NCBI GenBank assembly: GCA_964531785.1
Contig: CAZHFF010000001.1
Coordinates: 84,338-148,337, forward strand
Origin: an uncultured Candidatus Saccharibacteria bacterium
GTDB taxonomy: Bacteria; Patescibacteriota; Minisyncoccia; Phycocordibacterales; UBA12088
Direction of reading: 5' to 3'
Length of the DNA: 64,000 nucleotides
Numbering within the stretch: position 1 is the stretch's first letter; each line of letters starts with the position of its first letter. Made by a program: the position numbers and the translations under genes. The notes beneath the pieces were generated by a model that saw only the letters and a program-made list of their open reading frames with translations, did no database searches and was not told the origin of the DNA. Shown here piece after piece: positions 6,001 through 60,286 of this stretch.

Positions 6001-7299
6001 GGGTTGCCACAGGGCCGTGGCGGCGCCCCATGGCTTGCGGCACAGAACACATCGATAAGTCAGGAGCAGGAAGCCACGTTCCGTGTTCGTTTTGCGATCG
6101 AGAACTCAGGGCTCGAGATGACCGACCAGCAGATCCGGTTGCAGTATGCTGACAAGACCGGCTACGGTACCTGTAATGCGGTGCCATCGGTCGAGTATGA
6201 CGATGTACCGAACGCTGCGGGGTGCGGCGTCAATGCGATTTGCATGACGACCACGGCTCACTATAACGATGGTGACCCGACCGAACTATTGCTCAGCACT
6301 TCCGCGAACTACCGGGGTATTGCAGGAAAGCTCATTGAGAGCCCGAGCAATCAAACCACTGCGCTTACCATAGGTAATGAACGGGTCATTGAGGTCGAGT
6401 ATGCGATCGAGCTTACCCCGAACGCAACCTCCGACTCGTACTGTTTGCGCACGAGTGACGGCGGTGTGGAGTTCGACTCGTATCCGCAGATCGCCGAGGT
6501 GACCGCGAAGTACGGTCCACAGATCACGAACTGGCGGCTCAACTATGACGCCCCGATCGCGCTCGTCGAGGGGACGACGCGCGCGGTTGTGGCGACCGGC
6601 ACCGTGGCCGACCTCAACGGCTTTGAGGATCTCGTGTATGCGACGTCGACCATATACCGGAGCGGTGTAGGGAGCGATTGCGCTTCGGACCCGAACAACT
6701 GCTACCAGCTCACCTCGCTCCAGTGCCCGTTCGAGAACTGCTCCGGCACCACCTGCCAGGTCACCTGTACGGCCGATCTGCACTACTTCGCTGAGCCGAC
6801 CGACGATGGCAGCGCCTTCGAGGGAGAATCATGGCAGGCACGGCTCTTTATCCTTGACAGTACGGGCAATGAAGCAACCTCGACATCCGAAGGGGTCGAC
6901 CTCCTCACCCTGCGGGCGATGTCGGTCATCTCCGGTTCGATCAGCTATGGTACGCTCGGTCTTGCAGAGGATACCGGGAGCAGCAATGCGGTCGCGACGG
7001 TGCAGAATACCGGTAACGTTGGGATCGACCTGACCGTCGAAGGGACCGATATGACCGCGGGCTCGAGCGTGATCCCGGCAGGGAACCAGCTGTTCGCGAC
7101 CTCGACCTTCACGTATAGCTCGTGCGTGATCTGTTCCGCGCTCTCAGGTTCCCCGAGCCCCCTCGACCTCGACCTCGGCAAACCGACCTCGACCTCGAGT
7201 GCGGTAACGGACGACATCTACTGGGGTGTCTATATCCCGAGCGGTGTTGCGGGCACCGCGCACTACGGTGTGACCGAGTTCTATCCGATATCCACGTAA
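1..7299 (+). CDS. Giant secreted or surface protein, 5'-truncated at the window edge. Three ~800-aa tandem repeats (probable beta-helix/adhesin-like) followed by a unique C-terminal region with a DUF2341-like module.
   Basis: The frame is open from nt 1 with no upstream stop, and the listed 2401-aa ORF is at 94..7299. Three long internal repeats each end in a conserved F-A-T-S-S-G-x-S-G-[YF]-N-V-T-A-T-G ... Y-G-x-x-Y-D-N-D-P motif. Residues encoded at about nt 5090..5380 (DWDKRIRVNV...DLRFTD...TVWVKVP) resemble DUF2341. The protein is Thr/Ser/Gly-rich. Confidence 0.8.
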   Translation, partial: GTDPLGLALWGSTTVTTLSDGFFELAAEGGSMMTVSSTTIDHNPALQVFRLGFATSSGIVSGYNVTATGTPISYWWFRDHYGNYDGEAYDNDPVAEPGALRWDDSGFTIAISGNAYAGEGVGGAASSCGTHNVRLVVNGTTPYTAACDSGTGAFSFPAVSFAGDATFVAYLDTNGGARGAVVSRTPQSTIEDLAIYEHRVIVRHEYTEPLTLTQMAAYDSDQDSDIPYDAEVGALTVAPETGLFVWSDKTFAPGGNVTLASGGSGATYDGTLRLGTNAVFTSAGTETHTIGGSWVADTDATFTAASSSVVFTATTSGKTIAPSSPFYDVTFSGSGGWTIASSTVVTNALAVNAGSVVGTANVTVENGALSGNGSVALTGGTVTLYSGGMFGGSTAWSFNNLTLGNGGMGTTSKSGAGSVAIAGVLTVSANHVLEAGSVPWTLSGSGAPLVVSGSFSAQTSTTTWTGTAATAVPALSYHNLVFAPTSGSPTFTLAAGTLNAQSLTVGNGTNAVTVEANTNDPLINVSGTVRIRPSATYSAASANDLRIGGSYLNEGVFTHNGGGVVMQGSTSGLSVTPGNSPFRHLTFNNASGGWTISGNATTTGNFTLMAANSFTQANGTTLEVQGVFTNEVGGGVTEWTGSTLYLNSGTSYTMNSKTSGGDSYAALRLGASTHVRAWDSAAMTYTIPSSASFYSQDHANVPGELYIWGNYTRASGADHWSYATDFDGTDITSTPRQAKVFLADQATTTLSGGSLSIVGGAGATTTMQNQGSGTYGLVVSGGTFTAQYFRIRNIRSQGLTFSGAPTVTQLADGDLELSIQGGSTMTVAGSVITANPAKTWQGISFATSSGVSGFNVTATGSTGSSWRFTPTLGNLYGESYDNDPSPDPDGNPGYLVWEDSVQAINVSGRVYSDEGTTVSGVCNGSTPVVKLVAKSLAATTETTVPCAAGTGLYEVSSINFFGGGTVTVYLTGTAVPAAQVVHDTVSSLSDVDLYERRIMLRSVGPDAIRISDLAVHDSGEDPDVPFIAATGSPSSLTLPANTKLIVMQDSAFAPHGNITLQSGAGTAWDGTLELKQNATLVASTTQAHTYIVGGDWLAGSGSTFTAGLSTVTFTATTSGKTIEQRSSAFNTVIFNGTSGAWTFTGANATTTDDLIVTNGSVTVGTSTLAVGGSLVNDGTLVAASTTITLSSAAAETVKFGGASVGSLRFTGSGTFMMTDTNATSTGSVLISAGAVHLPSGTFAVAHGFEKTGGSFSHSGTLRLYGDLAGQTLRFGGSTLRNLTIAGTGSWTIADTAATSTGSVTIQSGGLTAPSANFGVGGSFVNSGTFNANGGHLYLFATSTGQTVAVGGGILSNVTFAGSGGGWTVSESATTTGALRLRQGTNFTMASSTVLEVQGVFENLIGGSATDWTDSRLYLNSGTSYTINTKAAGGDAYAFLTLGADTDVRMWNSSGATTTVHASSSLYSMNHGGSPGLLHVYGEYVRTSGADYWSHATDFDGVALGGGARPVSVRVASSSSITLTGGTLSIVGTASATTSIEVLGTGAYSWSIQNGTFEATYFSVRNLTAAGLILAGTTNVNSLSYGDMELSAEGGTLISVASSVIDQNPTKLMSGNRFATGTGATMGINVKRTGNTSNYWYFQGHYGGLSGEAYDDDGGDACGAIRWADSTCLEVSQSAYRFRADNGGGGAPDSEWFSTDWDKRIRVNVQNQNGQTITNGVVRVEVPLQDGMRSDFADLRFTDTSGTNLLSYVIESYTAATATVWVKVPSVAANSISPIYAYYDYYDVTVPNGQSATSTFLFLDTFESTNLASRYTGNTNYFAASASFARQGSYGLGAAVGYAEEETTGGMYGTSTSISRGSTLRWYQYVDTGASEASEPCTLFGVQGSGQNYAACLDQSPGRVVIARNVSSRDESGTILASSTASWMTGWYTVEVDWLSGGNMIHMTVHDVNGTLVASASASDGTYSSGTVGYSFWYQYGGWDFVSARPYAAIDLTGTVVGLPQGRGGAPWLAAQNTSISQEQEATFRVRFAIENSGLEMTDQQIRLQYADKTGYGTCNAVPSVEYDDVPNAAGCGVNAICMTTTAHYNDGDPTELLLSTSANYRGIAGKLIESPSNQTTALTIGNERVIEVEYAIELTPNATSDSYCLRTSDGGVEFDSYPQIAEVTAKYGPQITNWRLNYDAPIALVEGTTRAVVATGTVADLNGFEDLVYATSTIYRSGVGSDCASDPNNCYQLTSLQCPFENCSGTTCQVTCTADLHYFAEPTDDGSAFEGESWQARLFILDSTGNEATSTSEGVDLLTLRAMSVISGSISYGTLGLAEDTGSSNAVATVQNTGNVGIDLTVEGTDMTAGSSVIPAGNQLFATSTFTYSSCVICSALSGSPSPLDLDLGKPTSTSSAVTDDIYWGVYIPSGVAGTAHYGVTEFYPIST

Positions 7300-10372: not shown

Positions 10373-10380
10373 CGTTCGTA

Positions 10381-16891: not shown

Positions 16892-16972
16892 CGAACGCAC
16901 GGTGTCATTGCAGTGATCCGCTGTCCACTGCAGTACTCACACCTACGTGCTGAGGTAGGGTATACTTGGAGT

Positions 16973-18430
16973 ATGCGCGCGTCATACCTGGTGGTAGCTC
17001 TTGTGTTCACGAGCTCTTTGGTCGGCGCTGCGTCGACCCTGCTTGCGAATAACCCGCCGATCATATCGAACGTCCGCATCGCTTCGACGACCAAGGATAC
17101 CGCAATTATCACCTGGAGCACCGATAAACCCGGCGATTCGCTCGTGAATTTCGGCAAGCAGCCGCACTACGGGATGATCCGCACGCCCGGGAACGACAAG
17201 ACCGAGCACTCGGTCAAGCTTGAGGATCTCGATTCTTCGACGATTTACCATTTTCGCGTGTCGACCGCTGACACGCTCGGGAATCAAGCGGTTTCCGGCG
17301 ATTTCGTGTTCATCACCGAGGGGTTTAAGGACATCGAGGATATCGAAGAGGTTTCGAGCACCGAGCAGAAGACGCTGGTCGGCCAGGCGAAGGCAGCGAT
17401 CGAGCGGATCACCGACCCCGATGCGCTCAAGCTCGTGCAGCAGGAGCTTACCGAGCAAGCGGCGGATCTCCTGCGACCGCCCGAGGTCATCGGCAACCCC
17501 CGAGCGATCGACATCACCTCGACCGAAGCGAAGATCGTGTGGGCGACGAGCCGCGAGAGCAGCTCGGTCGTGTATTACTCGACCGAGGCACAGTTTTCGG
17601 GCGGGGACTATGCGCAAAGCTCAGCGGACCTCGAGAACATGACCAAGGACCACGAGGTACTGCTCTCGGGCCTCCGGCCGGCCACCACATACCATTTCAA
17701 GGTGTACTCGGAGGACGAGTTCGGCCTGTCGGGCGAGAGCGGTGATGTCACCTTTACCACCAAATCACCGCTTCCAACGATCGAGGATGTCCAGATAATC
17801 AAGATCGAGGAGGATAGCGCCACGTTCGCTTGGTCGACCGATATCCCCGCCGCTGGAGCGGTCATCTACGAGAACACGGTCACTGGTGAGATACGGTCCG
17901 AGGGAAGTCCCGAATTTCTGACGACCCAGACCGTGCGGTTGACCGACCTGACGTTCGGTGCGACCTATGTCGCTACGGTGCGTGCGGAGAACGAGCAAGG
18001 TGAGCCTTCTGAGAGCGAACCGATCACGTTCACGACCGTCCGCGACGAGGAACCGCCTCTGATAAGTCGGGTGAACAACGAATCGACCCTCTATCCAGGG
18101 GCCGAGACGCGTATTCAGACCATTGTCAGTTGGGGTACTGATGAACCCAGCTTCTGTAATCTGGCGTATAGCGAGGGTCTGGCGCCTGCCGAGAATGCTG
18201 TAGAGCTGGCGAGGAATGCCGATCCGGCGATCGACCACGTGCGGGTCATTACTGAGTTCCTGCCATCGACCGTGTACAAGTTCTGGGTCACCTGTGAGGA
18301 TAGGTCAGGCAACAGCGAGCGCTCAGAGGATTTCGTGCTCTTCACCCCGGAAAAAGAGAAGAGCATTATCGACATCATCCTTGAGAACTTTGAAGGTACC
18401 TTCGGCTGGGTGAAGAACATCGGGAAGTAG
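16973..18430 (+). CDS. Secreted protein with four fibronectin type III-like (purple-acid-phosphatase N-terminal-like) repeats.
   Basis: Start moved to the signal-peptide Met (MRASYLVVALVFTSSLVGAAS), with GGGTATACT 6 nt upstream. Four repeats of the form I.W.T..P....V.Y.........YHF[RK]V. Confidence 0.65.
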   Translation: MRASYLVVALVFTSSLVGAASTLLANNPPIISNVRIASTTKDTAIITWSTDKPGDSLVNFGKQPHYGMIRTPGNDKTEHSVKLEDLDSSTIYHFRVSTADTLGNQAVSGDFVFITEGFKDIEDIEEVSSTEQKTLVGQAKAAIERITDPDALKLVQQELTEQAADLLRPPEVIGNPRAIDITSTEAKIVWATSRESSSVVYYSTEAQFSGGDYAQSSADLENMTKDHEVLLSGLRPATTYHFKVYSEDEFGLSGESGDVTFTTKSPLPTIEDVQIIKIEEDSATFAWSTDIPAAGAVIYENTVTGEIRSEGSPEFLTTQTVRLTDLTFGATYVATVRAENEQGEPSESEPITFTTVRDEEPPLISRVNNESTLYPGAETRIQTIVSWGTDEPSFCNLAYSEGLAPAENAVELARNADPAIDHVRVITEFLPSTVYKFWVTCEDRSGNSERSEDFVLFTPEKEKSIIDIILENFEGTFGWVKNIGK

Positions 18431-18569: not shown

Positions 18570-20006
18570 ATGCGCGCTATCATCACCACAGAGAACGTCG
18601 ACGTGACCTATAACGCAGGTAAGTCGAACGAATTCAAGGCACTGGTCAATGTCTCGGTCGAGATCGCCGCGCGCGAGTACATCATTTTCTTCGGCCCCTC
18701 CGGTTGCGGTAAGTCGACCTTGCTCTACTCGATCTTTGGGGTTCTGGCACCAACCTCGGGCAAGGTCGTGGTGAAGGGAGACTCGATCTATGACTATGAG
18801 CCGATGGACCTGGTGATGTACCAGCGGAAGACGATGGGCATCATGTACCAGTCGTTCAACCTTATCCCCTCGCTCACCGTGCTCGATAACGTCCAGCTAC
18901 CGCTCATTTTCGCGGGGTTTCCTCCGTCCGTACGGGAGGGCAGGGCGATGGACCTGCTCGATCGGTTCGGTATCGCACACGTTGCCCACAAGCGCCCTGC
19001 ACTCCTCTCCGGAGGTCAGCAGCAGCGCGTTTCCGTGGCTCGCAGCCTAGTGAACGATCCGGAGATCCTTATCGCAGACGAGCCGGTCGGTAACCTCGAC
19101 GCGGTCTCCGCAGAAGCCGTTATGAACACGCTCGAGGAGATCAACCGTCACGACAAGAAGACGGTGCTTCTCGTGACGCACGATGCGAAGTACCTCCCGT
19201 ACGCGCACCGCGTGTTCTACCTTGACTACGGGAAGGTCGACCGCATCGTGCCGAACCCGGAAAAGCGCCAGATCATCAAGGTTCGTCCCGGCGAGACGAT
19301 CGTCACTGAGATCGAGCAGCTTGCCCGCATCTATCCGTACGACACGCCCGAGCAGCTGCGCGTCAAGAGCCTGATCAATTACCTCACCCAGAACCTCTCG
19401 TTCGATCAGATCGTACGGCTCGAACATATGACCCAAAAGGTGATCGAAGGCGTGCTCGGCGAGGAGCACTTCAGGACCATGCTGGTGACCGACTACGAGC
19501 AGGGCGGGTGCGGTATCAAGCCGGAGCAGGCGACACTGATGACCCAGCGCATGTACCAGATACTCTCACAATCGGGCGATGTGGTGCGTTTCCGACGCGT
19601 CACGCGTGATCAGAACACGATAGACTTAGAACGTACCGAGCTTGTGAAGCACATTCACGGGTACATGGTCGAAGAATGTAAGATCGCCGCAGATTCGCGC
19701 CTGCTCGAGCGTTTGACCAAAATGGTGACCGCACGCGTGTATGGCTACATAACGCGCGAGGAATTCCATCGTCAGCTTCGCCTGTCAGCAGACGAAGGTG
19801 GTGGCGGGTTCGACATCTACCTTGCTGCGGACCTCTCGCGATACCTCGAAAAGCTCATCGCTCAAGGGGTGTCGCACTTCTCGCAGCACCAAGAGGCGAA
19901 ACCGTCGTCAACGAACCTACATGCCGCACAGGCCAAGAAGTTCGAAGAGATGGATAAGGGTATACTGAGTAAACTGACGGGGATGCTGCATCGGCACAAG
20001 AAGTAA
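18570..20006 (+). CDS. ABC transporter ATP-binding protein (MacB/LolD/FtsE-like) with a ~250-aa C-terminal extension of unknown function.
   Basis: Walker A GPSGCGKST, signature LSGGQQQRV, Walker B ILIADEP. About 250 extra C-terminal residues with no recognisable motif. Confidence 0.85.
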   Translation: MRAIITTENVDVTYNAGKSNEFKALVNVSVEIAAREYIIFFGPSGCGKSTLLYSIFGVLAPTSGKVVVKGDSIYDYEPMDLVMYQRKTMGIMYQSFNLIPSLTVLDNVQLPLIFAGFPPSVREGRAMDLLDRFGIAHVAHKRPALLSGGQQQRVSVARSLVNDPEILIADEPVGNLDAVSAEAVMNTLEEINRHDKKTVLLVTHDAKYLPYAHRVFYLDYGKVDRIVPNPEKRQIIKVRPGETIVTEIEQLARIYPYDTPEQLRVKSLINYLTQNLSFDQIVRLEHMTQKVIEGVLGEEHFRTMLVTDYEQGGCGIKPEQATLMTQRMYQILSQSGDVVRFRRVTRDQNTIDLERTELVKHIHGYMVEECKIAADSRLLERLTKMVTARVYGYITREEFHRQLRLSADEGGGGFDIYLAADLSRYLEKLIAQGVSHFSQHQEAKPSSTNLHAAQAKKFEEMDKGILSKLTGMLHRHKK

Positions 20007-20148: not shown

Positions 20149-21357
20149 ATGAGGATCCAAGACATTGCAAAGCTCTCGACGCGTATGTTCAAGACGAACC
20201 CTGCGCGTACCTGGCTTACGATCCTCGGCATGGGCGTCGGTACCGGAGCGGTCGTGACGCTCGTGGGCTTGGGTTTCGGCCTTCAGAACATCATCCTCGA
20301 GCAGATCGTCTTCGGTGAGACGCTCCTGTCGCTCAATGTGACACCTCCGCCGTCCCGTTCCGTCGACCTGAACCCGCAAACGGTACAAGAATTCTTTGAG
20401 ATCGAACGGGTGAACGATGTGGCTCCGATGGCAAGCTTTGCAGCGCTCATCACCTACGAGGGACTGACGGGCAATACCTTTCTCCAGGGGGCAAACCCGG
20501 CGTTTTTGCGGTTCACAGGCGCAAAAGAGGTGGCGGGGAGGCTCTTTGACGACAAGACCCTTGCCGAGGATACAGGGAGCGTGCTCCTCTCGAGCGCCAT
20601 GCTCAAGCTCTTCGAGGTGGAAGACCCCGAGGAGGCTATTGGGAAGCAGGTCTCGTTCAGGGTCTTTGTGCCGGTCGCGGGGACGAACGACACAAAGGAA
20701 GCAGAGCTGCGTAAGCGCTACACTATCGTTGGTGTTACGAACGAGGAGAGTCGACCTACCGCGATGGTGCTCCTTGATGAACTCTCGACCCAGCTCCAGG
20801 TTTCGAGCTATGAGCGTGTCCAGGTGCGTGTCGAAGCAAGCGAGTACCTCGACCAGGTCTCAGAAGCCATCGTCGAGCGTGGGTATGGTGTGACCGCACT
20901 CTCGAAGACCGTTGAACAGGCGAACAAGATCTTCCAGGGCATCCAGGCGGTGCTGGCGGTCTTTGGTGGTATCGCACTCGTCGTTTCTGCGATAGGTATG
21001 TTCAACACTATGACCGTCACCCTCCTCGAACGTACGGGAGAGATCGGTATCATGCGTACCCTCGGCGCATCATCGAACGATATTCAGATATTGTTCGTTT
21101 CCGAGGCCGTGATCGTGGGTTTTTTGGGAGGCATCGTCGGCATTTCGATCGGAGTCGGTATCGGTTTTGCGCTCAATACGATGGTCAATGTGGCAGCATC
21201 CAATTTCGGCGGTAAGGCGGTAGCGCTGTTCGCCTACCCGATCCCGTTCATCCTGTTCATCGCCGCGTTCTCAGCAATAGTCGGGTTTCTCACGGGAGTG
21301 TTCCCGGCACGGCGCGCGGCAGGGCTCAATCCGCTCGATGCTATCAGGTACAAGTAA
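20149..21357 (+). CDS. ABC transporter permease, MacB/FtsX family.
   Basis: N-terminal TM, large periplasmic domain, C-terminal FtsX-like 3-TM region (RTLGASSNDIQILFVSEAVIVGFLGGIVGI). Directly downstream of the ABC ATPase. Confidence 0.85.
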   Translation: MRIQDIAKLSTRMFKTNPARTWLTILGMGVGTGAVVTLVGLGFGLQNIILEQIVFGETLLSLNVTPPPSRSVDLNPQTVQEFFEIERVNDVAPMASFAALITYEGLTGNTFLQGANPAFLRFTGAKEVAGRLFDDKTLAEDTGSVLLSSAMLKLFEVEDPEEAIGKQVSFRVFVPVAGTNDTKEAELRKRYTIVGVTNEESRPTAMVLLDELSTQLQVSSYERVQVRVEASEYLDQVSEAIVERGYGVTALSKTVEQANKIFQGIQAVLAVFGGIALVVSAIGMFNTMTVTLLERTGEIGIMRTLGASSNDIQILFVSEAVIVGFLGGIVGISIGVGIGFALNTMVNVAASNFGGKAVALFAYPIPFILFIAAFSAIVGFLTGVFPARRAAGLNPLDAIRYK

Positions 21358-21686: not shown

Positions 21687-23567
21687 ATGCAGCACCACAA
21701 CGCGATAGCAACTGATGCAGGAAAAGCGAGCATCGCGATGCTCGTTTCGTTCTGTGCGGTTCTCGTGCTTGCCGTACTCTTCGGTGTGGGAGACCGTGGC
21801 GCGGTGTCGAACGTTCAGGCGACCACGACCGCGACCACGACCGTTACCGTCCTGAACCAGCCTCCGCAGTGGACCGAGACCGCCCGTGAGTACTACCCCT
21901 CCTCGACCTCGACCCCGACCAATTCCGGCACCTCGACGGTCTGGACCGCAATAGGTACCGATAGCAACAGCGAGAACTACTACCTCCTGATCTGTAAATC
22001 GAGTTCGACCCCTACCGCGCAGTCGCTTGCCGCTCCCGCTTGCGGCGGCGGCACGACCGACCTGTGGGGCGTATCGACCTCGACCATAAGCGGGCAACGC
22101 GCGTTCGTCAGTACGACGACCACGAATGATTGGGCAGAGAAGAACGATTGGTACGCGTACATCTGCGACTACAATGAGGGCAGTCCGCGCTGTAATGCAG
22201 CCATGTACAACGGCCTGCATGAACCGGGCGAAGCGTCGGCAACGAGCTCGCCATTCATGGTGAACCGGCGCCCGATCCTCACCTCCGCCACCGACGATTC
22301 ACCGACCTTGCCGGGCGCTACGACGACGTGGAACGCGGTAGCAGACGACCCTGACAGTGTTGGAGGTGATGACACCATCAAGCTCCATGTCTGCAAGGCT
22401 CAAGATTTCAACGTGACGCTCGGAGTTTGTGGAGGCGGCGGCTTCTGGGCAAGTTCGACGTTCGTTACCTCGAACCCGAGCGCAGAGGGGTATATCACCA
22501 TACCAATGCAGGACACCAATTATGGAGCGTACGTCTACCTCATTGACGAACATGGTCATGTGTCGGATAGCCTTTGGCACGGGTCGAGTACGGTCTTGAC
22601 CGTGGCGAACGCAGCCCCGTACGTTTCATCGTCGAGCATACAGCTCTACAATACGTTCGGCACCACGACTACGAACCAGAACCTAACGTTGACGGTACCT
22701 GAAGGGGTGACTAACAATTTTGTGCTTCAGTTCGAGGTGAACGACGATAATAGCTGCGAGGCGTTCGGAGGCGGTAACGAGATCACCGCGACACAGATCA
22801 ACGTCTTCAGGTCCGCAGTGGGAGGGGCGCTCGGTGCCGGCTGCGACGCTTCGGGTGAGTTCAATGCGAACAACTGCTATACCCACACTACTAATGCAAC
22901 GAACTGGGCGCCGACCTGCTACCAGGTGCCGGGCTCATGCGCTGGCCCGGCGGATAGCACTGCGGTATGGGAGTGTACGTTCCCGCTCTGGTACGTGGCC
23001 GACGCGACGGATGTTGGTAGCGAGTATGCAGGTGAGGATTGGCGGGGTTCTGCGCGCGCGATCGACGAAGCGTTGACCGGTCCGTATTCGACTTATGATG
23101 GTGGTATCGATGTTGCGGGGTCTGCGAATGTGCAGCAGTTCCTCTCGTTCCGCGCCACGGGGTCGCCCATCGCGTATGGCGCGTGGGAGCCAGGGGAGAA
23201 CACGGGTACCCTGAGCGCGTCGACCACGCTGTATGTGACGGGAAACACGGGTGTTGATGAGGCACTCTCGGGGGACCCTATGTGTATCAACTACCCGACC
23301 TGCTCGAACCTTGCAACTTCGACGATCTTTGTCGGGTACCAGCGATATGCGTCAACGAGCGTCGCGTATGGTTCGGGTATCGAGCTATCGACGAGCACCC
23401 TTGCAACGCGTTTCAACCTGCGTATCCCTAAAACGACCGCTACCTCAAGCCCAACGAATGCAAAGACCTACTGGGGTATAGCGGTGCCTTCGAGCATCAC
23501 CGTCGCGGGCGACTACATAGGCAGGAACTACATCGACGCGCTCGTTTCGCCCTCGGCTGAGTGGTAG
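21687..23567 (+). CDS. Hypothetical secreted or surface protein, Cys- and Thr-rich.
   Basis: Start moved to MQHHNAIATDAGKASIAMLVSFCAVLVLAV, a signal anchor. Thr-rich linker, many paired Cys. GGTATACT lies upstream. A stem plus T-run at about 23617..23642 follows the stop. Confidence 0.55.
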   Translation: MQHHNAIATDAGKASIAMLVSFCAVLVLAVLFGVGDRGAVSNVQATTTATTTVTVLNQPPQWTETAREYYPSSTSTPTNSGTSTVWTAIGTDSNSENYYLLICKSSSTPTAQSLAAPACGGGTTDLWGVSTSTISGQRAFVSTTTTNDWAEKNDWYAYICDYNEGSPRCNAAMYNGLHEPGEASATSSPFMVNRRPILTSATDDSPTLPGATTTWNAVADDPDSVGGDDTIKLHVCKAQDFNVTLGVCGGGGFWASSTFVTSNPSAEGYITIPMQDTNYGAYVYLIDEHGHVSDSLWHGSSTVLTVANAAPYVSSSSIQLYNTFGTTTTNQNLTLTVPEGVTNNFVLQFEVNDDNSCEAFGGGNEITATQINVFRSAVGGALGAGCDASGEFNANNCYTHTTNATNWAPTCYQVPGSCAGPADSTAVWECTFPLWYVADATDVGSEYAGEDWRGSARAIDEALTGPYSTYDGGIDVAGSANVQQFLSFRATGSPIAYGAWEPGENTGTLSASTTLYVTGNTGVDEALSGDPMCINYPTCSNLATSTIFVGYQRYASTSVAYGSGIELSTSTLATRFNLRIPKTTATSSPTNAKTYWGIAVPSSITVAGDYIGRNYIDALVSPSAEW

Positions 23568-23616: not shown

Positions 23617-23642
23617 AGAGCGGGCAACCGCTTTTTCTTTTG
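23617..23642 (+). terminator. Candidate Rho-independent terminator after the 21687..23567 gene.
   Basis: AGCGG-gcaa-CCGCT stem followed by TTTTTCTTTTG. Confidence 0.45.
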
Positions 23643-23784: not shown

Positions 23785-24831
23785 ATGAGCCGGCTCACGT
23801 TCCTGGCTGCGCTGTTCGTAGTGGCGTTCGTAGGCGCTGAGTGTGCATACGCAGGTTTTGGTATCACGCCGCCCTACGTGCGGAACGATCGTCTGACCCA
23901 GGGGTCTCAGTACACCCAGGAGATCATCATCGTACGCGGTGATCCGGTCGACGACCTCAAGGCGGAGATCGCAGTCAACGTTCCCGGTATCGAAGGCTGG
24001 ATCTCGATAGACCGGGGGAACGAGTTTTTGCTTCCCGCAGGCGTGAAGCAGATTCCCATCCAGGTCACCATACGCGTGCCACAATCCGCGGCATACGAGC
24101 GTCATCAGGGGAATATTCGGATCCGGACCACGTCACCTGACCCGGCTTCCGGTGTGTCGATCGCGCTTGGTGCGCAGATCGACGTCGACATACGTGTGGT
24201 CGATGAGATCCGTGATTTCGAGGTCAAACGGGTACAGATCAGCGAGACCGAGGAGCCCCGCCGCTTCTGGTGGCTCGAGTATCCCGGCAAGATCACGTTC
24301 ACCATGGGTATCGAGAATACGGGAAATGCGCCCACCGCGCCTGCCCGGGTACAGTTCGACATCTACGACAAGCGCGGGAACGTCGTGCTCGAGAGCACCC
24401 AGAACACGAACAGCATCGAGTCCGTGCTGCCGTTCGAGACCCGTGATGTGGTGGCATACCTGCCGACCCGACTTCCCCCAGGAGCATACCTGGTGAAGTA
24501 CTCCGTGTTCCGTTTTGAGGATGAGGTCAAGCGTTCGGGCGAACTCACGTTGTCGGTATTGCCGCAGGGTACCCTGTCAGCCTATGCCGGGTACGGGCTC
24601 GATGGCTTGTCGCTCAAGGACAAGCTCACGCTGATCATACCGGTGGGGCTTCTCGTATTCTTGCTCCTGGTAACGGTCCTTGTTTTGAATCTCCGGAGAC
24701 ACCGAAAGCGCAGGCAACCGGCGCGTAGACGGCAGCAGGTTGATGATGACCCCCCACCTCCCGCTCATCCGCGCCCTCGTGCGGCCACATCGGGCCACGG
24801 CGTTGTCGACCTCTCGAGAAGGAACCGTTAG
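23785..24831 (+). CDS. Cell-surface protein: signal peptide, beta-sandwich domains, C-terminal TM anchor and basic/Pro-rich tail.
   Basis: MSRLTFLAALFVVAFVGAECAYA signal peptide. C-terminal TM LTLIIPVGLLVFLLLVTVLVL followed by RRHRKRRQ. AGGTACAAT sits 8 nt before the ATG. First gene of the cohesin/dockerin cluster. Confidence 0.55.
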   Translation: MSRLTFLAALFVVAFVGAECAYAGFGITPPYVRNDRLTQGSQYTQEIIIVRGDPVDDLKAEIAVNVPGIEGWISIDRGNEFLLPAGVKQIPIQVTIRVPQSAAYERHQGNIRIRTTSPDPASGVSIALGAQIDVDIRVVDEIRDFEVKRVQISETEEPRRFWWLEYPGKITFTMGIENTGNAPTAPARVQFDIYDKRGNVVLESTQNTNSIESVLPFETRDVVAYLPTRLPPGAYLVKYSVFRFEDEVKRSGELTLSVLPQGTLSAYAGYGLDGLSLKDKLTLIIPVGLLVFLLLVTVLVLNLRRHRKRRQPARRRQQVDDDPPPPAHPRPRAATSGHGVVDLSRRNR

Positions 24832-24834
24832 AGT

Positions 24835-26031
24835 ATGTGGGGCCGCTTCTCTCTGTGTGCACGTGAGGTATGCCTCTTGGCGGTGGTGCTTGGCGCACTG
24901 CTCGTGTCCCTTGCGTCGGGTGTGCCGCGCGACGTAGGAGCACAGGTGTATGTTGCAACGACCACCGTGTCGCTCACCGTTTGCGGTGACGGTGTCGTGA
25001 GCGGTGCGGAGTTCTGTGACGACGGCACGAATACCGGGGCGTACGCTGGCTCTATTGCTGGACGGAACTGCGACCCGCTCTGCCGATCCTACGGCCCCTA
25101 TTGTGGTGACAGCATTATCCAGGTGTTCTATGGCGAGGAGTGTGATGATGGGAATAACAGCTCAGGAGATCTGTGCAACAATATTTGCCAGAACGAGACA
25201 CCGCCGGTCACCGTGGGTGGCGGTGGAGGCGGTACGACGGGTGGCGGTGGCGGAAAGAGCAGCGGTACCGGTCAGACGGGGATACCGGGCGCCTCGACGC
25301 AAGGTAACATCGATTTCGTCGGGGAAACGACCGTGCTGGTACGCGGTATGGCGTACCCCGGCGCCACGGTGAGCATTCTGCGTGACGGTGAGCTCGAGCG
25401 CGTCGTCGAGGCGGATTCGAGCGGCATGTTCAACTATGCGCTCAGTGGCCAGACCGCAGGCATCACGACGTTCGGTTTTTGGGCGCTCGATCGAGCGAAC
25501 CGGAGCTCGATCACCTACTCGGCAACGTTCCAGATCGTTGAGAACGCCGCTACCACGCTCTCAGGCATTCTCATACCGCCGACGATCGCGGCAGTACCTG
25601 AAAAGGTACCACCCGGCAGTTCCGTGCAGTTCGAAGGCACCGCGGCCGCGAACAGCTCGGTCCGTGTGTTCGTGGATGCGGCCGATACCCCCGAGGAGAC
25701 CAAGGCAGCTCAATCCGGTGCATATGTCCTTGCGTATGATACGAAAGACCTCGCGGCAGAGCAGTTCCATACGGTGAAAGCCCACTATGTTGACGCGTCG
25801 AACAGCGAGCTTAAGAGCGGTTTCAGTGCACTGCTCAACTTCTACGTGGGCACGCGTGACGTAGCGTCGACCGTGACCGCCGACCTCAATGGCGACCGTG
25901 CGGTGAACCTGACCGATTTCTCGATACTGCTCTTCAATTGGAACTCGAACAACCCGGTGGCTGATATCAACAAGGATGGGGTCGTGTCGCTGCCGGACTT
26001 TTCCATTCTCCTCTTCTACTGGACCGGCTAG
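24835..26031 (+). CDS. Secreted dockerin-containing protein with two Myxococcus-type cysteine-rich repeats and a Gly-rich linker.
   Basis: Two CGDG....E.CDDGN...C repeats. GGGGGGTTGGGGGKSSGTG linker. C-terminal dockerin type-I duplicated Ca-binding repeats DLNGDRAVNLTDFSILLFNW and DINKDGVVSLPDFSILLFYW. Confidence 0.6.
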   Translation: MWGRFSLCAREVCLLAVVLGALLVSLASGVPRDVGAQVYVATTTVSLTVCGDGVVSGAEFCDDGTNTGAYAGSIAGRNCDPLCRSYGPYCGDSIIQVFYGEECDDGNNSSGDLCNNICQNETPPVTVGGGGGGTTGGGGGKSSGTGQTGIPGASTQGNIDFVGETTVLVRGMAYPGATVSILRDGELERVVEADSSGMFNYALSGQTAGITTFGFWALDRANRSSITYSATFQIVENAATTLSGILIPPTIAAVPEKVPPGSSVQFEGTAAANSSVRVFVDAADTPEETKAAQSGAYVLAYDTKDLAAEQFHTVKAHYVDASNSELKSGFSALLNFYVGTRDVASTVTADLNGDRAVNLTDFSILLFNWNSNNPVADINKDGVVSLPDFSILLFYWTG

Positions 26032-26123
26032 CCGCTATGGTGAGGAAACACCCTTGCCCGAGTACCAGCGCTGTCCACCGCGCCAGTATCTTCTTGCTTG
26101 CTGGCTTGGGGTATACTGTATGC

Positions 26124-27170
26124 ATGCGTGCGCTCAGAGCACCTCTGTTTCTGCTACTTGCCGTGTATATGCTGCCGTTTCCGGTACAAGCGGCGCGGGT
26201 GTACCTTGACCCTGGTGCGACCGAACAAGGCAGGCTCGATACGTGGTACCTTCCGGTACGGATCGACACCGAAGGAGCCTGTATCAATGCGGTCACGGTG
26301 AAGGTGAACTATGACCCTGCGCTCGTGAGCGTGATCGATACCTCGCGTGGCAACTCGATCATACCGCTCTGGGTAGATCACCCGAGCGTCGCCCGTGAAG
26401 AAGCGGACCAAGAGGTCGGCGTCGTTTCTTTCACCGGGGGTATTCCTGGCGGCTATTGTGGCCGTGTCCTCGGTGATCCGGGCCAGACCAATACGCTTCT
26501 CACGCTTGTGGTGACAGGCGCGTCGGGCGGGCGGCCGCTCGAAGTCCCGGTCAAGACGCTCTTTACGCTCGATCCGACCACGACCGCATACCTGCACGAT
26601 GGGACCGGCATGGCAGCTGCCATGACGCTCCTCGGGACCGAGGTCACGCTCTATGAGGGCACCAGCACTCCGGCGAACGTCTGGCTCGATGAGGTGCGGA
26701 GCGATACGATCGCGCCTGAGCTGTTCGACATCACCCTCGTACGCGGTCCTTCTGAGGGAAATGTTCGCCACTACATCGTCTTCTCGACGACCGATAAGCA
26801 GAGCGGGATCGATCACTATGAGGTCCGTGAGACCGATCCGCTGCGTTTTGGCTTCCTGACGCTCTTTCCGGACAAGAGCAGCTATTGGATCGAGGCATCA
26901 AGCCCCTACATTCTGCGCGACCAGACACTGCGATCGAAGATCCTGGTCAAAGCCGTCGACAAGAACGGCAATGAGCGGATCGTGACGCTCATGCCAGAAC
27001 TCGATCCACTGGAGCGCGTGCTCCACCCGACCATACTCGCCCTCCTTGCGGTGATCATCGGAGTCCTGGCGTTGATCATCGTCCTGTATACGCGAAGGCG
27101 ACGCACGACGAAACGTCCCGAAACCTTAGGCGGCGAACCCCATGACCATGAAACACAAGATCGTCCTTAG
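26124..27170 (+). CDS. Cohesin-like domain surface protein with C-terminal TM anchor.
   Basis: Start at MRALRAPLFLLLAVYMLPFPVQAA, a signal peptide, with GGGGTATACT 6 nt upstream. Cohesin-like pattern VYLDPGATEQGRLDTWYLPVRIDTEGACINAVTVKVNYDPALVSVIDTSRG. C-terminal TM ILALLAVIIGVLALIIVLY followed by RRRR. Confidence 0.6.
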   Translation: MRALRAPLFLLLAVYMLPFPVQAARVYLDPGATEQGRLDTWYLPVRIDTEGACINAVTVKVNYDPALVSVIDTSRGNSIIPLWVDHPSVAREEADQEVGVVSFTGGIPGGYCGRVLGDPGQTNTLLTLVVTGASGGRPLEVPVKTLFTLDPTTTAYLHDGTGMAAAMTLLGTEVTLYEGTSTPANVWLDEVRSDTIAPELFDITLVRGPSEGNVRHYIVFSTTDKQSGIDHYEVRETDPLRFGFLTLFPDKSSYWIEASSPYILRDQTLRSKILVKAVDKNGNERIVTLMPELDPLERVLHPTILALLAVIIGVLALIIVLYTRRRRTTKRPETLGGEPHDHETQDRP

Positions 27171-28980
27171 TTTCTTGTTCGCGCTTGGTGCGGTCGCGAA
27201 TGCGCCTCATGCAGCGCAGGCAGCGCAGGACGCGGGGCTCTACCTCACGCCGGCGACCGCCGTATTCCCGGTGGGCGAGCCTTTTACGGTCGAGGTTCGT
27301 ATCAGGAATACCGGTGGATCGATAGGTACGGCGGACGCTACGGTGGGATATGAGCCGTCGGATCTCGAGTTCGTTTCGTTCTCGTCGGACGGCTCGATCT
27401 TTGCGTCTATCATCGTCCCCGAAACGAACGAACGAGGTCGGGTCAAGGTCCAGGGCGTGGTCTCGCACGGGAGGTCTTGGAGCGGAGAAGACGGCCTGTT
27501 CGCGACCTTGACGTTCCGTCCGCTGCGGAGCACAGCGACCGAGCTGCGTTTTATGCAGGGTGCCGCGACACCGCTCATGGCGGCGGTCGGCGCATCGAAT
27601 GTCCTGTCACGGCTGGGAGCTGCGACCTACACGCTCGTGCCGAAGGAGATGGTACCTGCGCCAGCTGCGGTCATTGCGGCAACACCTGCTCAGGAGGGTT
27701 CGATCGAGATCACGCCACTTCCTTTGCCGGACGATGGCTGGTTCGGAACAACGTCCGTAAAACTCGCATGGTCCTTGCCTCAGTCGGTCACTGAGATGCG
27801 CACGATCCTCTCCGACAAGCCAGTCGACACGCCTTCAAAGCTGTACCCGGTCCCGGTCTCGTCGGTACTACTCGACGGTCTCGCTGAGGGGACCAACTAC
27901 TTCCATATGCAATGGAAACAGGAGGGGGTCTGGGGGCCCGTTACCCGCTATCCGATCAAGGTCGACCTGACGCCACCTGAACATGTGATCGTGACCGAAG
28001 CCGATCGAACCGACCCGACCGACCCGCGCGCAGCGTTCGTGATCGACAGTGCGGACCTGCTCTCTGGCATCAGTAGCTATTTGATCTCGATCGACAACGA
28101 TGAGCCCGAGGTCTGGGAAAAGAGCAAGGACGAGCTCTATCGTCCGCAGGGTCTTACACCGGGGAGTCACTTGATCACGGTCACTGCACGCGATCGCGCA
28201 GGGAACACGAAGACCGCAGAGCTCGAGTTCCTCGTGCGGTCGCTCGACCCACCTACCATGACCCGCTCTCCTGACCACGTCCTTGCCGGCAACCAGATCA
28301 CCATCGAGGGAACGACCTACCCGAACGCTGAGGTCACGACGTACATCAGTTTCAAGGATGGGGAAGCGACCGAAAAGAAGGTGCGGAGCGATGCGTCGGG
28401 CGCGTTCATCGTCACACTGACCGAGGAGGCACGTCCGGGCAAGTATACCATCTGGTTCTCCGTTGCTGATGAGCGCGGCGCGGTGAGCCCGCCCTCGATC
28501 AAACGGTCGGTCACGGTGACGCAGCCGTATATCATGCTGTTCGGGTCGACCGCGGTCACGTACATGTCGGTGATCGTGCCGCTCGTCGGCCTCATCCTGC
28601 TCCTTGGTTTGATCCTTTGGCTGCTCTACACCTATGTGCGCGGCTACCGAGCCCGCGTTCGGCGTGAGACCGACCAAGCGTACCGTGCGGTCCAAGACGA
28701 GTTCAGCAACCTCGAACAGGACATGGTCAAGCAGATCGGCGTGCTCGAGCAGGCGAACCATGCACGTAAGCTGACCCGCGAAGAGCTCCGCATCCTGACC
28801 GAGCTACGCGAGAAGCTGAACAAGATACAGGAGCACATCTCATCAGAGATCGATGATATCGAGCCGGTCGCACACGAACTCCGGGTACCACCAAAGCGAC
28901 AACGTGAAGAAAGCGCTCTCGCTCGAGTGCGCGAAACGCAGCCGTCGAAACGGACGATAACGATCGAACGAGTGAGGTAA
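27142..28980 (+). CDS. Cohesin-like domain surface protein with Ig-like domains, a TM anchor and a cytoplasmic coiled-coil tail.
   Basis: Signal peptide. LYLTPATAVFPVGEPFTVEVRIRNTGGSIGTADATVGYEPSDLEFVSF resembles a cohesin. TM VIVPLVGLILLLGLILWLLY, then a charged helical tail. Confidence 0.6.
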   Translation: MTMKHKIVLSFLFALGAVANAPHAAQAAQDAGLYLTPATAVFPVGEPFTVEVRIRNTGGSIGTADATVGYEPSDLEFVSFSSDGSIFASIIVPETNERGRVKVQGVVSHGRSWSGEDGLFATLTFRPLRSTATELRFMQGAATPLMAAVGASNVLSRLGAATYTLVPKEMVPAPAAVIAATPAQEGSIEITPLPLPDDGWFGTTSVKLAWSLPQSVTEMRTILSDKPVDTPSKLYPVPVSSVLLDGLAEGTNYFHMQWKQEGVWGPVTRYPIKVDLTPPEHVIVTEADRTDPTDPRAAFVIDSADLLSGISSYLISIDNDEPEVWEKSKDELYRPQGLTPGSHLITVTARDRAGNTKTAELEFLVRSLDPPTMTRSPDHVLAGNQITIEGTTYPNAEVTTYISFKDGEATEKKVRSDASGAFIVTLTEEARPGKYTIWFSVADERGAVSPPSIKRSVTVTQPYIMLFGSTAVTYMSVIVPLVGLILLLGLILWLLYTYVRGYRARVRRETDQAYRAVQDEFSNLEQDMVKQIGVLEQANHARKLTREELRILTELREKLNKIQEHISSEIDDIEPVAHELRVPPKRQREESALARVRETQPSKRTITIERVR

Positions 28981-29025
28981 ACGGTAGACCCGGCGCCCTA
29001 TTGTGTTGCTTGCGTCAATCGGGCC

Positions 29026-29754
29026 CTAGGACCAAAAGAGTACGAGGCCGCCGAGCCGGGTTGAGTCAGCCATGTTCGAGATGATGATCGCAAGGTCGGC
29101 GAGCGTTATCTTGCCGTCCTGATCAAGGTCGTACTGCGCCTCGTAGGCGAGGAACAGCCTTGACGAAACGATGCCAAAGTCGATCAGGTTGACCTGCGCA
29201 TCACCGTTTATATCGGGTGAGGGTGCCGACGCTTCCCGTACCGAGAGGATGATCGGACTTTTTTTGCTGGTGAGCTCTGTGCCCTGTCCGTCGTGGGCGA
29301 GTACGTGCGCCTCCCCCCAGAGCACGCTCGCCTTACCCTGTTCGAGCGGACGGAGCGTGAGCGTGAAGAGCGTCCCGGACCCGGTAAAACCGGTCGGAGA
29401 GACGACGCCGCCTGCAAATCGTAGCTCGCCGTCCTTCAGCACCGGTTCCTCTGCCCAGAGGTCAATGATCGAGCCGTCGTAGGCGATCCGCTCGACCACG
29501 AACTTGTCCATAGGCACAGCGATCGTGCCGCTCACCACGTTGATCGGCTGCTTGCTCGCTAGGTTGACCTGGAGCGTAACCTGCTCACCGACCGCAACGA
29601 AGCGCCCATCTTCGGGTACCAGGTACACGTCATACGGGCTTCGTATGAAGGAGAGCGATGTTGCCAATAGAACGATGACCGGCAGGCCTACTGCCAGGGT
29701 GTACCTATGGCGCAACAGCTGGTGTGTTACCATCCGGAACATCAGTACCTCCAT
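29026..29754 (-). CDS. Signal-anchored protein carrying both a cohesin-like domain and a C-terminal dockerin; possible adaptor.
   Basis: Start moved to MEVLMFRMVTHQLL...LAVGLPVIVLLATSL, a TM segment. Cohesin-like YLVPEDGRFVAVGEQVTLQVNLASKQPINVVSGTIAVPMDKFVVERIAYDGS. Dockerin repeats DINGDAQVNLIDFGIV and DLDQDGKITLADLAIIISNM. Confidence 0.55.
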   Translation of the reverse strand: MEVLMFRMVTHQLLRHRYTLAVGLPVIVLLATSLSFIRSPYDVYLVPEDGRFVAVGEQVTLQVNLASKQPINVVSGTIAVPMDKFVVERIAYDGSIIDLWAEEPVLKDGELRFAGGVVSPTGFTGSGTLFTLTLRPLEQGKASVLWGEAHVLAHDGQGTELTSKKSPIILSVREASAPSPDINGDAQVNLIDFGIVSSRLFLAYEAQYDLDQDGKITLADLAIIISNMADSTRLGGLVLFWS

Positions 29755-29835
29755 AGTACCAGGAACAGGATCCCTGTGGAGCCTGTGCTGGTGATAACTC
29801 GGTCCGCATGCTCGCGACGCGCGTATACTGGAGGT

Positions 29836-60277: not shown

Positions 60278-60286
60278 GATTTTGTA

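Follow-up and report, generated by a model that had tools for sequence, protein, structure and literature searches.

A conserved, enzyme-free cohesin-dockerin locus beside a type VII ABC transporter in Paceibacteria

Many non-cellulolytic bacteria and archaea have long been known to carry cohesin and dockerin modules, whose role there is unexplained. The locus described here raises this question in a compact form: what do such modules build in an ultra-small, uncultivated and probably host-dependent CPR bacterium when no enzyme is attached to them? A 64-kb stretch of DNA (the window) was analysed, in which a preliminary description had recognized five adjacent genes as a cohesin-dockerin surface protein cluster. 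All five ORFs, here called B, C, D, E, and F, are present where they had been placed. The cluster is real but incomplete, since the conserved unit begins about 7 kb further upstream, at position 16913, and takes in genes for an fn3 protein, for a MacB/FtsX-type ABC transporter, and for a further protein, A. Counted from there, the conserved block has nine genes or more, arranged as fn3 protein, ABC ATPase, MacB/FtsX permease, A, B, C, D, E, F. B, the first gene of the original cluster, belongs to this block but carries neither a cohesin nor a dockerin. We did not find this nine-gene cohesin-dockerin/ABC locus described in the searchable literature.

Two proteins, C and F, had been said to end in duplicated dockerins, and both score above the Pfam threshold for Dockerin_1 (PF00404; cutoff 22.9 bits), C with 26.5 bits (E=7.4e-6) and F with 29.3 bits (E=9.6e-7). 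The dockerin of C lies at 25879..26028 on the plus strand, with Ca-binding loops at residues 350 and 377 (DLNGDRAVNLTD and DINKDGVVSLPD). That of F lies at 29059..29214 on the minus strand, with loops at residues 181 and 209 (DINGDAQVNLID and DLDQDGKITLAD). The loops of both proteins fit D-x-[ND]-x-D-x6-D and form the dockerin arrangement of two tandem 12-residue loops with a helix after each, and their Ca-ligand Asp/Asn residues are invariant. All of the near-complete C orthologues (73 of 73) carry a dockerin, and 37 of 41 F orthologues gave a Dockerin_1 match. The F profile matches many solved dockerins, the best being 2jnk at 7e-7. The Pfam dockerin matches also overlap EF-hand models.

Cohesin-type modules had been proposed for D, E, and F, and all three are borne out, E by Pfam and the other two by profile homology to E. 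The cohesin of E (27226..27651, plus strand) exceeds the Pfam gathering threshold for PF00963 (36.5 bits, cutoff 24.1, E=6.6e-9), but the single sequences of D (E=0.13) and F (E=0.24) match Cohesin only weakly and fall below it. Profile-profile comparison with hhalign aligned the E cohesin with the D module (26190..26648, plus strand) at 99.1% probability and E=6e-19, and with the F module (29230..29640, minus strand) at 98.0% and E=1.8e-13; the F and D modules matched each other at 97.4%. Among orthologues, 13/51 of D (best 4e-7) and 8/41 of F (best 2e-5) have a Pfam Cohesin match at E<=0.01. The only PDB matches of the D profile are cohesins, 5g5d_A (E=0.009) and 5aoz_A (0.097). Judged by these profiles, D and F each have an N-terminal module homologous to the cohesin of E.

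The proteins that carry these modules differ in how they are built and held. Protein C (24835..26031, plus strand) is secreted, with a signal peptide alone by hydropathy, two DUF4215 repeats, a Gly-rich linker, two Ig domains (Big_6, 1.6e-8), and the C-terminal dockerin. Its cysteine-rich repeats (24976..25197, plus strand; about residues 48-121) had been read as Myxococcus-type, and they pass both the DUF4215 model (PF13948, E=1.7e-12, 47.8 bits, cutoff 27) and the NCBIfam myxo_disulf_rpt model TIGR02232 (2.2e-11, 43.3 against a cutoff of 20.8). The pairing of such repeats with a dockerin was thought unusual but is not a one-off, as DUF4215 is present in C orthologues wherever Pfam was run or recorded. 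In protein D (26124..27170, plus strand), the signal peptide is followed by the cohesin-like module, in which a pair of Cys residues is invariant, and by an Ig-like domain also found in E; a TM helix and a short, basic tail form its C-terminus. Protein E (27142..28980, plus strand) has a signal peptide, the cohesin, Ig-like domains (Big_13), a TM helix, and, in the cytoplasm, a conserved coiled-coil tail of about 110 aa. By hydropathy, B, D, and E each begin with a signal sequence and have a TM helix near the C-terminus, followed by a tail in the cytoplasm, in line with the TM-anchored partners with cytoplasmic tails of the preliminary description. Protein F (242 aa; 29026..29754, minus strand) combines an N-terminal membrane anchor, again by hydropathy, with a cohesin-like module and a C-terminal dockerin. 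The preliminary description saw in this pair of modules the architecture of an adaptor scaffoldin; the two modules are there, but F is not a free adaptor because it is itself membrane-anchored. The domain identities and topology of the locus proteins are thereby established.

Upstream of these genes lies the ABC machine. The block opens with the fn3 protein (16913..18430, plus strand), which has an N-terminal signal or anchor and matches Pur_ac_phosph_N (1.5e-23) and fn3 (7.8e-23). It is 73-84% identical in related loci and lies upstream in 28 of the 30 loci with enough sequence. The ATPase (478 aa; 18570..20006, plus strand) is of the LolD/FtsE/MacB type (ABC_tran, 1.1e-30); in NCBIfam it comes closest to LolD, FtsE, and MacB, with each score lying far under its equivalog cutoff. 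In all these loci it carries a conserved C-terminal extension of about 240 aa, for which a search found no known homologue and no PDB relative. The permease (20149..21357, plus strand) matches MacB_PCD (1e-21) and FtsX (2.3e-17) and is 79-84% identical among close relatives. It has four TM helices, at about residues 21-50, 260-293, 311-348, and 353-388 (hydropathy, overlapping stretches merged), and a MacB-like extracytoplasmic domain; at E<=1, MacB_PCD is the only ECD family among its Pfam matches. A type VII ABC system is recognized by a LolD/FtsE-like ATPase and an FtsX-type permease of four TM helices whose TM1 and TM2 enclose a large extracytoplasmic domain; the pair here answers to this description. 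Orthology to a named MacB, LolC/E, or FtsX was rejected, as the scores are far below the equivalog cutoffs (MacB 83.6 against 966, LolCE 78.7 against 362, FtsX_Gpos 50 against 225). The locus has no adaptor (MFP) gene and no other substrate-related gene.

Proteins A and B lie between the transporter and the dockerin protein C. A (626 aa; 21687..23567, plus strand) has an N-terminal hydrophobic helix with a possible signal-peptidase site (after VQA, before T), about five beta-sandwich domains, and conserved Cys residues, and its AF2 model is a stalk of about five Ig-like domains. Its C-terminal ~270 aa are shared with a giant DUF2341 surface protein (ORF 94-7299), whose homologous C-terminal module lies at 6541..7266 on the plus strand; in many related loci the giant gene immediately precedes the fn3 gene. 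In B (23785..24831, plus strand) a signal peptide precedes the mature N-terminus, which is invariant (GFGITPPYVRND). Two Ig domains of the PapD/ASH-like kind follow, then a C-terminal TM helix and, on the cytoplasmic side, a tail whose end carries the conserved motif GVVDLSRRR. The AF2 model of B is a tandem PapD/WxLIP-like Ig protein. Both models are all beta-sandwich, with no catalytic fold, and their fold matches are ubiquitous Ig-like folds, with low TM-scores for B.

Is this gene set more than a chance neighbourhood? About 90 loci from Parcubacteria/Paceibacterota genomes and metagenomes preserve its order, sampled as 10 reference-genome loci, 5 loci from contig look-ups, and 80 metagenome loci. 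Counting only loci with sufficient sequence, B co-occurs upstream with A (56/56), FtsX (47/48), and ABC (33/34), and downstream with C (48/48), D (41/41), E (37/39), and F (32/36). The block persists where insertions separate ABC from FtsX or C from D, and where F is inverted. The neighbours outside it vary from locus to locus. Packing within the cluster is operon-like, with a B-C gap of 3 nt and a D-E overlap of 29 nt. Module number is just as stable. In the window, custom HMMs found two dockerins and three cohesin modules, no more and no fewer, and they found the same set in 12 of the first 15 related loci, the exceptions being L001, its duplicate L002, and L006, where the sequence fetched does not include F. 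The same HMMs found both modules in 43 of 43 F orthologues. Gene order and module count are conserved in all related loci long enough to judge. With three cohesins and two dockerins, one cohesin is spare within the locus.

The modules are also free of enzymes. The preliminary description had noted that no glycoside hydrolases are attached, and indeed no dockerin or cohesin sits on an enzyme: Pfam finds no catalytic domain and no CBM in A-F, and the custom HMMs place neither module on any other ORF in the window, including the trehalase at 14819-16435. CPR genomes have few glycoside hydrolases in general. Neither mark of a cellulosome or amylosome is seen, since within the window C and F, the dockerin proteins, lack a catalytic domain, and in place of a scaffoldin there is a single cohesin per protein, with no CBM, SLH, or LPXTG matches and with TM anchoring. 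The conserved 2:3 set and gene order suggest a dedicated complex rather than a cellulosome, in keeping with the non-cellulolytic character first proposed. Because no enzyme is attached, the role of the locus is likely structural or adhesive (envelope architecture, or attachment to a host or particle), not polymer degradation.

Our preferred reading, to which we give a probability of about 45%, sees in the locus the genes for a display complex of cohesins and dockerins that is anchored in the membrane, is not a cellulosome, and may be coupled to the type VII ABC machine. D and E would be type I membrane proteins and F would be anchored N-terminally, so that the three cohesins would be presented at the cell surface. 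We infer that the modules bind and pair with each other: the Ca-dependent dockerins of secreted C and of F would plug into the cohesins of D, E, and F, so that C would be displayed, on a stalk of Ig-like domains, by a small scaffold whose composition is fixed. This complex would probably work beside the type VII (MacB/FtsX/LolC-like) ABC machine, the Ig-stalk A, and the WxLIP/PapD-like B. The class acts on extracytoplasmic protein partners by mechanotransmission, a mechanism established for MacB, LolCDE, and FtsEX (PMC5985334, PMC12646458), and ATP-driven movements could be transmitted to such partners here too. Coupling might run through the unique C-terminal domain of the ATPase and through the cytoplasmic tails of B and E, which are conserved. 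Points that weigh against this reading are the cohesin left over in the locus, the single-sequence scores of D and F under the Pfam cohesin cutoff, the terminator-like hairpin in the A-B gap, and the commonness of the Ig-like folds that A and B match.

Adjacency to the ABC genes may not mean physical coupling, as CPR genomes are small and often syntenic. Another possible explanation is that the surface complex is real and the transporter functionally separate, a neighbour in a streamlined genome that serves efflux, antimicrobial-peptide resistance, or extraction of lipids or lipoproteins. MacB-family transporters are commonly efflux pumps or extractors (PMC5985334, PMC12646458), and ABC and FtsX are 79-85% identical across related loci compared to 44-80% for A-F, as expected of a housekeeping pump. 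The intergenic gaps among ABC, FtsX, A, and B are longer than those inside B-E, and a terminator-like hairpin follows A in the A-B gap (23617..23634, plus strand), which may separate two transcription units. The number of terminator-like sites in the region does not exceed the shuffled expectation, so the hairpin is weak evidence. We consider a separate transporter somewhat unlikely, given that the linkage is near-universal in about 90 loci and survives insertions within the block and variable flanks, that the ATPase has its family-specific 240-aa domain in all of them, and that no adaptor or other substrate-related gene is present.

The same linkage could be read in the opposite direction, as an ATP-powered surface organelle. 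Here the type VII ABC engine would be coupled, through the ATPase C-terminal domain and the tails of B and E, to the cohesin-dockerin scaffold, A, and the giant LamG/DUF2341 adhesin, and would extend, load, or remodel a host-attachment structure. This bolder version strikes us as doubtful. More improbable still is a fibre or stalk formed by beta-strand complementation, with membrane-anchored B as a PapD-like chaperone or platform, with A and C as subunits that each contribute a conserved strand from the N-terminus, and with the cohesin-dockerin pairs serving only as anchors. Ig-like folds are ubiquitous, the TM-scores are low, and neither an usher nor a sortase is present; the shared motif may be no more than the strand with which each first domain starts, or a site of glycosylation. 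A chaperone-usher system proper was rejected, as B is membrane-anchored, its resemblance to PapD is one of fold alone, and the locus has no usher.

It could also be that the two module types do not pair at all, with the EF-hand-like repeats providing stability with Ca2+ or binding something else and the beta-sandwiches acting as generic spacers. The overlap with EF-hand models would fit, and many orphan dockerin-like modules with unknown partners exist in non-cellulolytic organisms. We regard this as very unlikely, because in all loci examined the two module types occur strictly together, at a fixed 2:3 count, and a non-cellulosomal pair from Archaeoglobus fulgidus does bind (PMC9705933, PMC6394049). 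Least probable is a degradative role, with the locus as a minimal cellulosome or amylosome whose spare cohesin takes up dockerin-bearing enzymes from genes in other parts of the genome. The excess of cohesins over local dockerins would fit, the Ruminococcus bromii amylosome is a precedent outside cellulose degradation (PMC4611034), and the 2jnk match of the F dockerin is a hint. Against it stand the scarcity of glycoside hydrolases in CPR genomes, the lack of CBMs, catalytic domains, or further module-bearing ORFs noted above, and a composition fixed across lineages.

With two dockerins, three cohesins, no enzymes, a MacB/FtsX-type ABC machine as its constant companion, and near-universal conservation in a large clade, the locus is a compact test case for these modules. 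It may reveal how ultra-small cells build their surface or attach to hosts, and it points to what may be a new type of extracytoplasmic partner for type VII ABC systems. It also suggests orthogonal cohesin-dockerin pairs that protein engineering could use. If the surface organelle exists, it would give non-cellulosomal cohesin-dockerin pairs their first physiological role and MacB/FtsX-type machines a new partner class.

The Clostridium thermocellum-type cellulosome shares with the locus the families PF00963 and PF00404, duplicated Ca-binding dockerin loops, assembly at the cell surface, and, in its adaptor scaffoldins, the combination of cohesin and dockerin seen in F. In contrast, the locus has no dockerin-tagged enzymes or CBM, is anchored by transmembrane helices rather than SLH domains or sortase, has three single-cohesin proteins in place of multi-cohesin scaffoldins, and occurs in a CPR bacterium, linked to a type VII ABC transporter. 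Cohesin-dockerin pairs outside cellulosomes are no novelty as such, one being that of A. fulgidus, for which we know of no natural role. Like the locus, that pair, the Clostridium perfringens hyaluronoglucosaminidase dockerin (PDB 2jnk/2ozn), and the R. bromii system (PMC4611034) use cohesin-dockerin modules outside cellulose degradation. The C. perfringens and R. bromii systems recruit glycoside hydrolases, whereas none is seen with the Paceibacteria locus in the window, and none of the three is reported with this gene set or an ABC machine. Also comparable is the cultivated Saccharibacterium Southlakia epibionticum, a CPR bacterium in which the dockerin-domain envelope protein SEML1_0315 is essential and matters for growth on the host (PMC10633639), a precedent that favours the preferred reading; it belongs to another CPR class, and that work describes no cohesin partners or ABC-linked locus.

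For the proteins around the scaffold, the comparisons are with WxL loci and with other type VII systems. B resembles WxLIP (DUF916-DUF3324-TM; PMC10599100; PDB 9i1y, 9i25) in its two tandem Ig-like domains and C-terminal TM helix. Neither B nor its neighbours have a Pfam match to DUF916, DUF3324, or WxL at E<=1, so B was rejected as a WxLIP or WxL locus member and is an analogue; the WxL surface-protein loci of Firmicutes also belong to a different envelope and phylum, and the TM-scores of B are low. The ABC machine shares with MacAB-TolC, LolCDE, FtsEX-EnvC/PcsB, and YbbAP-TesA a LolD/FtsE-like ATPase and a four-TM, MacB-type permease. It differs from them in lacking an MFP adaptor, a coiled-coil hydrolase activator, and a LolA-like partner, in the extra 240-aa domain of its ATPase, and in its candidate partners, which would be Ig-domain and cohesin-dockerin proteins.

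The genes B to E are tightly packed on the forward strand. B (23785-24831, +) is followed after a gap of 3 nt by C (24835-26031, +). The ORF of D (+) opens at 26037, has its probable start at 26124, and ends at 27170, overlapping E (27142-28980, +) by 29 nt. F (29026-29754, -) lies on the opposite strand. Hydropathy agreed with the preliminary description, which had the partners anchored by transmembrane (TM) segments: B, D, and E start with a signal sequence and end with a TM helix and a cytoplasmic tail, and F has an anchor at its N-terminus. C has a signal peptide alone. A scan for promoters and terminators showed no excess over chance. Opposite the 5' end of F, and overlapping it, is a 214-aa ORF (29707-30351, +). 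It has a TM segment at its N-terminus and a weak Germane match (E=0.028), and among the related loci a homologue was found in L011 only.

Duplicated dockerins had been claimed for C and F, cohesin-like modules for D, E, and F, and Myxococcus-type Cys-rich repeats for C. The HMMER search against Pfam that had been proposed as a check gave significant matches to both module families. C matched DUF4215 (1.7e-12), Big_6 (1.6e-8), and Dockerin_1 (7.4e-6, exceeding the gathering score), and its Cys-rich repeat matched TIGR02232 of NCBIfam (2.2e-11). F also exceeded the gathering score for Dockerin_1 (9.6e-7). Each dockerin has two canonical loops, DLNGDRAVNLTD and DINKDGVVSLPD in C and DINGDAQVNLID and DLDQDGKITLAD in F, and the Asp ligands of the latter are invariant in 41 F orthologues. 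E matched Cohesin above the gathering score (6.6e-9) as well as Big_13.

The Cohesin matches of the single D and F sequences were weak (0.13 and 0.24, respectively), and these calls were re-examined at the family level with orthologue profiles. The D and E cohesin profiles aligned with 99.1% probability (E=6e-19), together with a second Ig-like domain common to both proteins. F aligned with E at 98.0% probability (E=1.8e-13) and with D at 97.4%. Pfam Cohesin was matched at E<=0.01 by 13/51 D orthologues, among which it is the sole recurrent Pfam family, and by 8/41 F orthologues. Searched against the PDB, the D profiles matched cohesins only: 1aoh (0.74) with a 6-sequence profile, and 5g5d_A (0.009) and 5aoz_A (0.097) with a 51-sequence profile. 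Of the 36 chains matched by the F profile at E<=0.1, roughly two dozen are solved dockerins, the best being 2jnk (7e-7); EF-hand calcium-binding proteins rank below them. The domain matches and the family-level comparisons therefore confirm the cohesin-dockerin observation, including the presence of both modules in one protein, F, and we regard the modules as very probably genuine. Two features of the cohesin-like module of D (26190-26648) are absent from the E cohesin: an invariant pair of cysteines, C53 and C112 in D numbering, and the conserved insertion GGIPGGYCGR...GDPG.

The conserved unit is larger than the five genes first reported. A contig with an E orthologue (47% identity) encodes an fn3 protein, an ABC ATPase (478 aa), a MacB_PCD/FtsX permease, an A protein of ~628 aa, B, C, D, and E. 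This order is identical to that of the window, where the block begins well upstream of B with the fn3 gene (16913-18430, +), the ATPase (18570-20006, +), the permease (20149-21357, +), and A (21687-23567, +). When tblastn was run with the window proteins, the same order was found in 10 reference-genome loci, with F added on the opposite strand and then VIT1. The order was also seen in three more distant contigs, with B identity of 52-57%.

A metagenome scan seeded with the invariant N-terminus of B yielded 326 relatives, and 80 of these loci were examined with family HMMs. Counting only loci with sufficient flanking sequence, B was accompanied by A in 56/56, FtsX in 47/48, ABC in 33/34, fn3 in 28/30, C in 48/48, D in 41/41, E in 37/39, and F in 32/36. 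The dockerin was present in all 73 near-complete C orthologues, and all 43 F orthologues carried cohesin and dockerin together. The genes flanking the block vary from locus to locus, and the block persists through insertions. In L066, a RhuM/Fic gene lies between ABC and FtsX, and an uncharacterised 380-aa gene lies between C and D. F is inverted in 11/43 loci, which form one subclade. An altered subclade comprises L066 (4601-6099, 12485-13627), L052, L069-L073, L076, L079, L081, L086, and L089; besides the RhuM/Fic and 380-aa inserts it has an extra 221-aa ORF between E and F, and F shares the strand of the rest of the block. Identity of the window proteins to the 10 reference-genome loci and L001 was 77-85% for ABC/FtsX, 73-84% for fn3, 65-80% for B, 53-65% for A and C, and 44-55% for D/E/F. 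Judged by sequence identity, evolution is fastest in the outermost components.

The ATPase and permease were placed in the MacB/LolCDE/FtsEX (type VII) class and are orthologues of no named system. The canonical FtsEX cell-division pair was rejected: the extracytoplasmic domain is MacB_PCD, scores fall far under the FtsX/FtsE cutoffs, and the coiled-coil hydrolase partner is absent from the locus. The C-terminal 240 aa of the ATPase (19275-20006) form a conserved extension containing EIEQLARIYPYDTPEQLRVKS. With a custom HMM, this extension was found in every related locus with a complete ABC gene. No relatives of it were found in Pfam, NCBIfam, or the PDB, where one spurious coiled-coil match was returned (E=0.27). 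The type VII class acts through mechanotransmission (PMC5985334, PMC12646458). By analogy, the ABC pair may work on the cohesin-dockerin assembly in this manner; the candidate contact points are the extension of the ATPase, residues 240-478, and the conserved tails, residues 307-348 of B and 503-612 of E. The fn3 protein, A, B, and the type VII ABC pair are strictly co-conserved with the module set. Functional coupling of the ABC machine to the complex is a tentative proposal, to which we give somewhat less than even odds. That the transporter is functionally unrelated to the complex appears unlikely, and of the alternatives considered it survives best.

B belongs to no Pfam family. Its own family is large, with >1000 homologues. 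At E<=1e-3, the B profile matched 976 clusters made at 50% identity, of which 603 reached E<=1e-10, and a profile search for PDB relatives was empty. The mature N-terminus, GFGITPPYVRND, is invariant. The cytoplasmic tail (end 24790-24831) is Pro/Arg-rich and variable; its terminal GVVDLSRRR is conserved in the closer clade and missing in more distant members of the family. For A, at least 398 homologues were found; wherever the source gives a name, it is "hypothetical protein". No PDB relatives of A were found by sequence profile. Its AF2 model (pLDDT 78) places about five beta-sandwich domains behind an N-terminal helix, and its structural neighbours are generic Ig/fn3 only.

The C-terminal ~270 aa of A are homologous to the C-terminal ~250 aa (6541-7266) of the giant DUF2341 surface ORF (94-7299, +), which encodes 2401 aa with internal repeat segments. 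The C-terminus of the giant ORF shares 26-34% identity with the A genes of related loci (E 3e-8 to 3e-20), and A of the window is 29% identical to the giant gene of L014. In many related loci, the next gene upstream of fn3 is the giant gene, whose products are 6,000-7,600 aa. The first Met of the window's giant ORF does not open a signal peptide, so a truncation or frameshift may lie upstream. Next to it are four small ORFs lacking annotation (7357-11276), and between this group and the fn3 gene come a P-type cation ATPase (11836-14589, +) and a trehalase of family GH37 (14819-16435, -). One or two small genes separate the giant gene from fn3 in L014 and L015, and the P-type ATPase and trehalase therefore look like an insertion into this neighbourhood.

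A and C also have in common a motif, ATT[TS]V[TS][VL], immediately past their predicted signal-peptidase sites. It was found in 58/80 A orthologues, 30/85 C orthologues, and 3/435 background ORFs. In the window proteins, the N-terminal peptides are ATTTVTVLN in A and ATTTVSLTV in C. This motif could be a donor strand or a recognition strand. The AF2 model of A assigns no strand to the invariant stretch and gives it pLDDT values of 37-67, a low to moderate confidence. We consider it improbable that the locus builds a fibre by strand complementation on B as its platform. The shared C-terminal module and N-terminal motif might serve as leads to possible contacts among the giant protein, A, B, and C.

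The setting is a non-cellulolytic CPR bacterium. The MAGs of the closest E, A, and B relatives are labelled Parcubacteria group, Candidatus Paceibacterota/Pacebacteria, or Patescibacteria group, and four large-scale-binning records are labelled "uncultured Candidatus Saccharibacteria". Apart from the single GH37 trehalase and the giant ORF, the remaining window is housekeeping: enolase, PPDK, RNR, SMC, RNase R, SmpB, and tmRNA. The region 58001-62000 has a GC content of 49%, compared to ~59% elsewhere; its genes include NUDIX and an ORF of 434 aa (58973-60277) for which Pfam gave no match. It adjoins the tmRNA gene (61401-61811, -; tag AEKTARAILSPFQMKDLGFAMA) and may be an island integrated there. 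In the 439-aa ORF at 62618-63937 (-), the SmpB domain is confined to residues 293-435; the true start lies downstream of the listed one, or the protein has an unusual N-terminal extension.

Domain identities, membrane topology, and a closed 2:3 dockerin:cohesin set are established for the locus. The dockerins span residues 349-398 of C and 176-242 of F, and the cohesin modules residues 23-175 of D, 29-170 of E, and 39-175 of F. We propose that C and F dock, through their dockerins and with calcium, onto the membrane-tethered cohesins of D, E, and F. The resulting small scaffold would display C with its Cys-rich and Ig domains. The role of this assembly would be structural or adhesive, because no enzyme is attached. 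We put the probability that the modules form a dedicated, non-degradative surface complex at about 70%. That the cohesin-like and dockerin-like modules do not pair with one another is quite improbable. A cellulosome was rejected: as the preliminary description had stated for glycoside hydrolases, Pfam placed no catalytic domain in A-F, nor any CBM, and no dockerin or cohesin was found beyond A-F within the window (64 kb of a 360-kb contig), the GH37 trehalase and giant ORF included. Dockerin-bearing enzymes encoded elsewhere in the genome are the least probable alternative.

Non-cellulosomal cohesins and dockerins have been described before. The A. fulgidus pair serves in engineering (PMC9705933, PMC6394049); further examples are the R. 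bromii amylosome (PMC4611034) and the C. perfringens dockerin 2jnk, the best PDB match of the F profile. Therefore, neither the module types nor their non-cellulosomal use is new. In a cultivated Saccharibacterium, a dockerin-domain envelope protein is essential (PMC10633639). In the searchable literature on CPR/Patescibacteria/Parcubacteria and cohesin or dockerin, no description was found of the conserved locus, of its fixed, enzyme-free 2:3 composition with TM anchors, or of its invariable link to a MacB/FtsX-type ABC system with a novel ATPase domain. The locus does not qualify as a cellulosome, as any of the named type VII ABC systems, or as a WxL locus, yet it has working principles in common with all of them.
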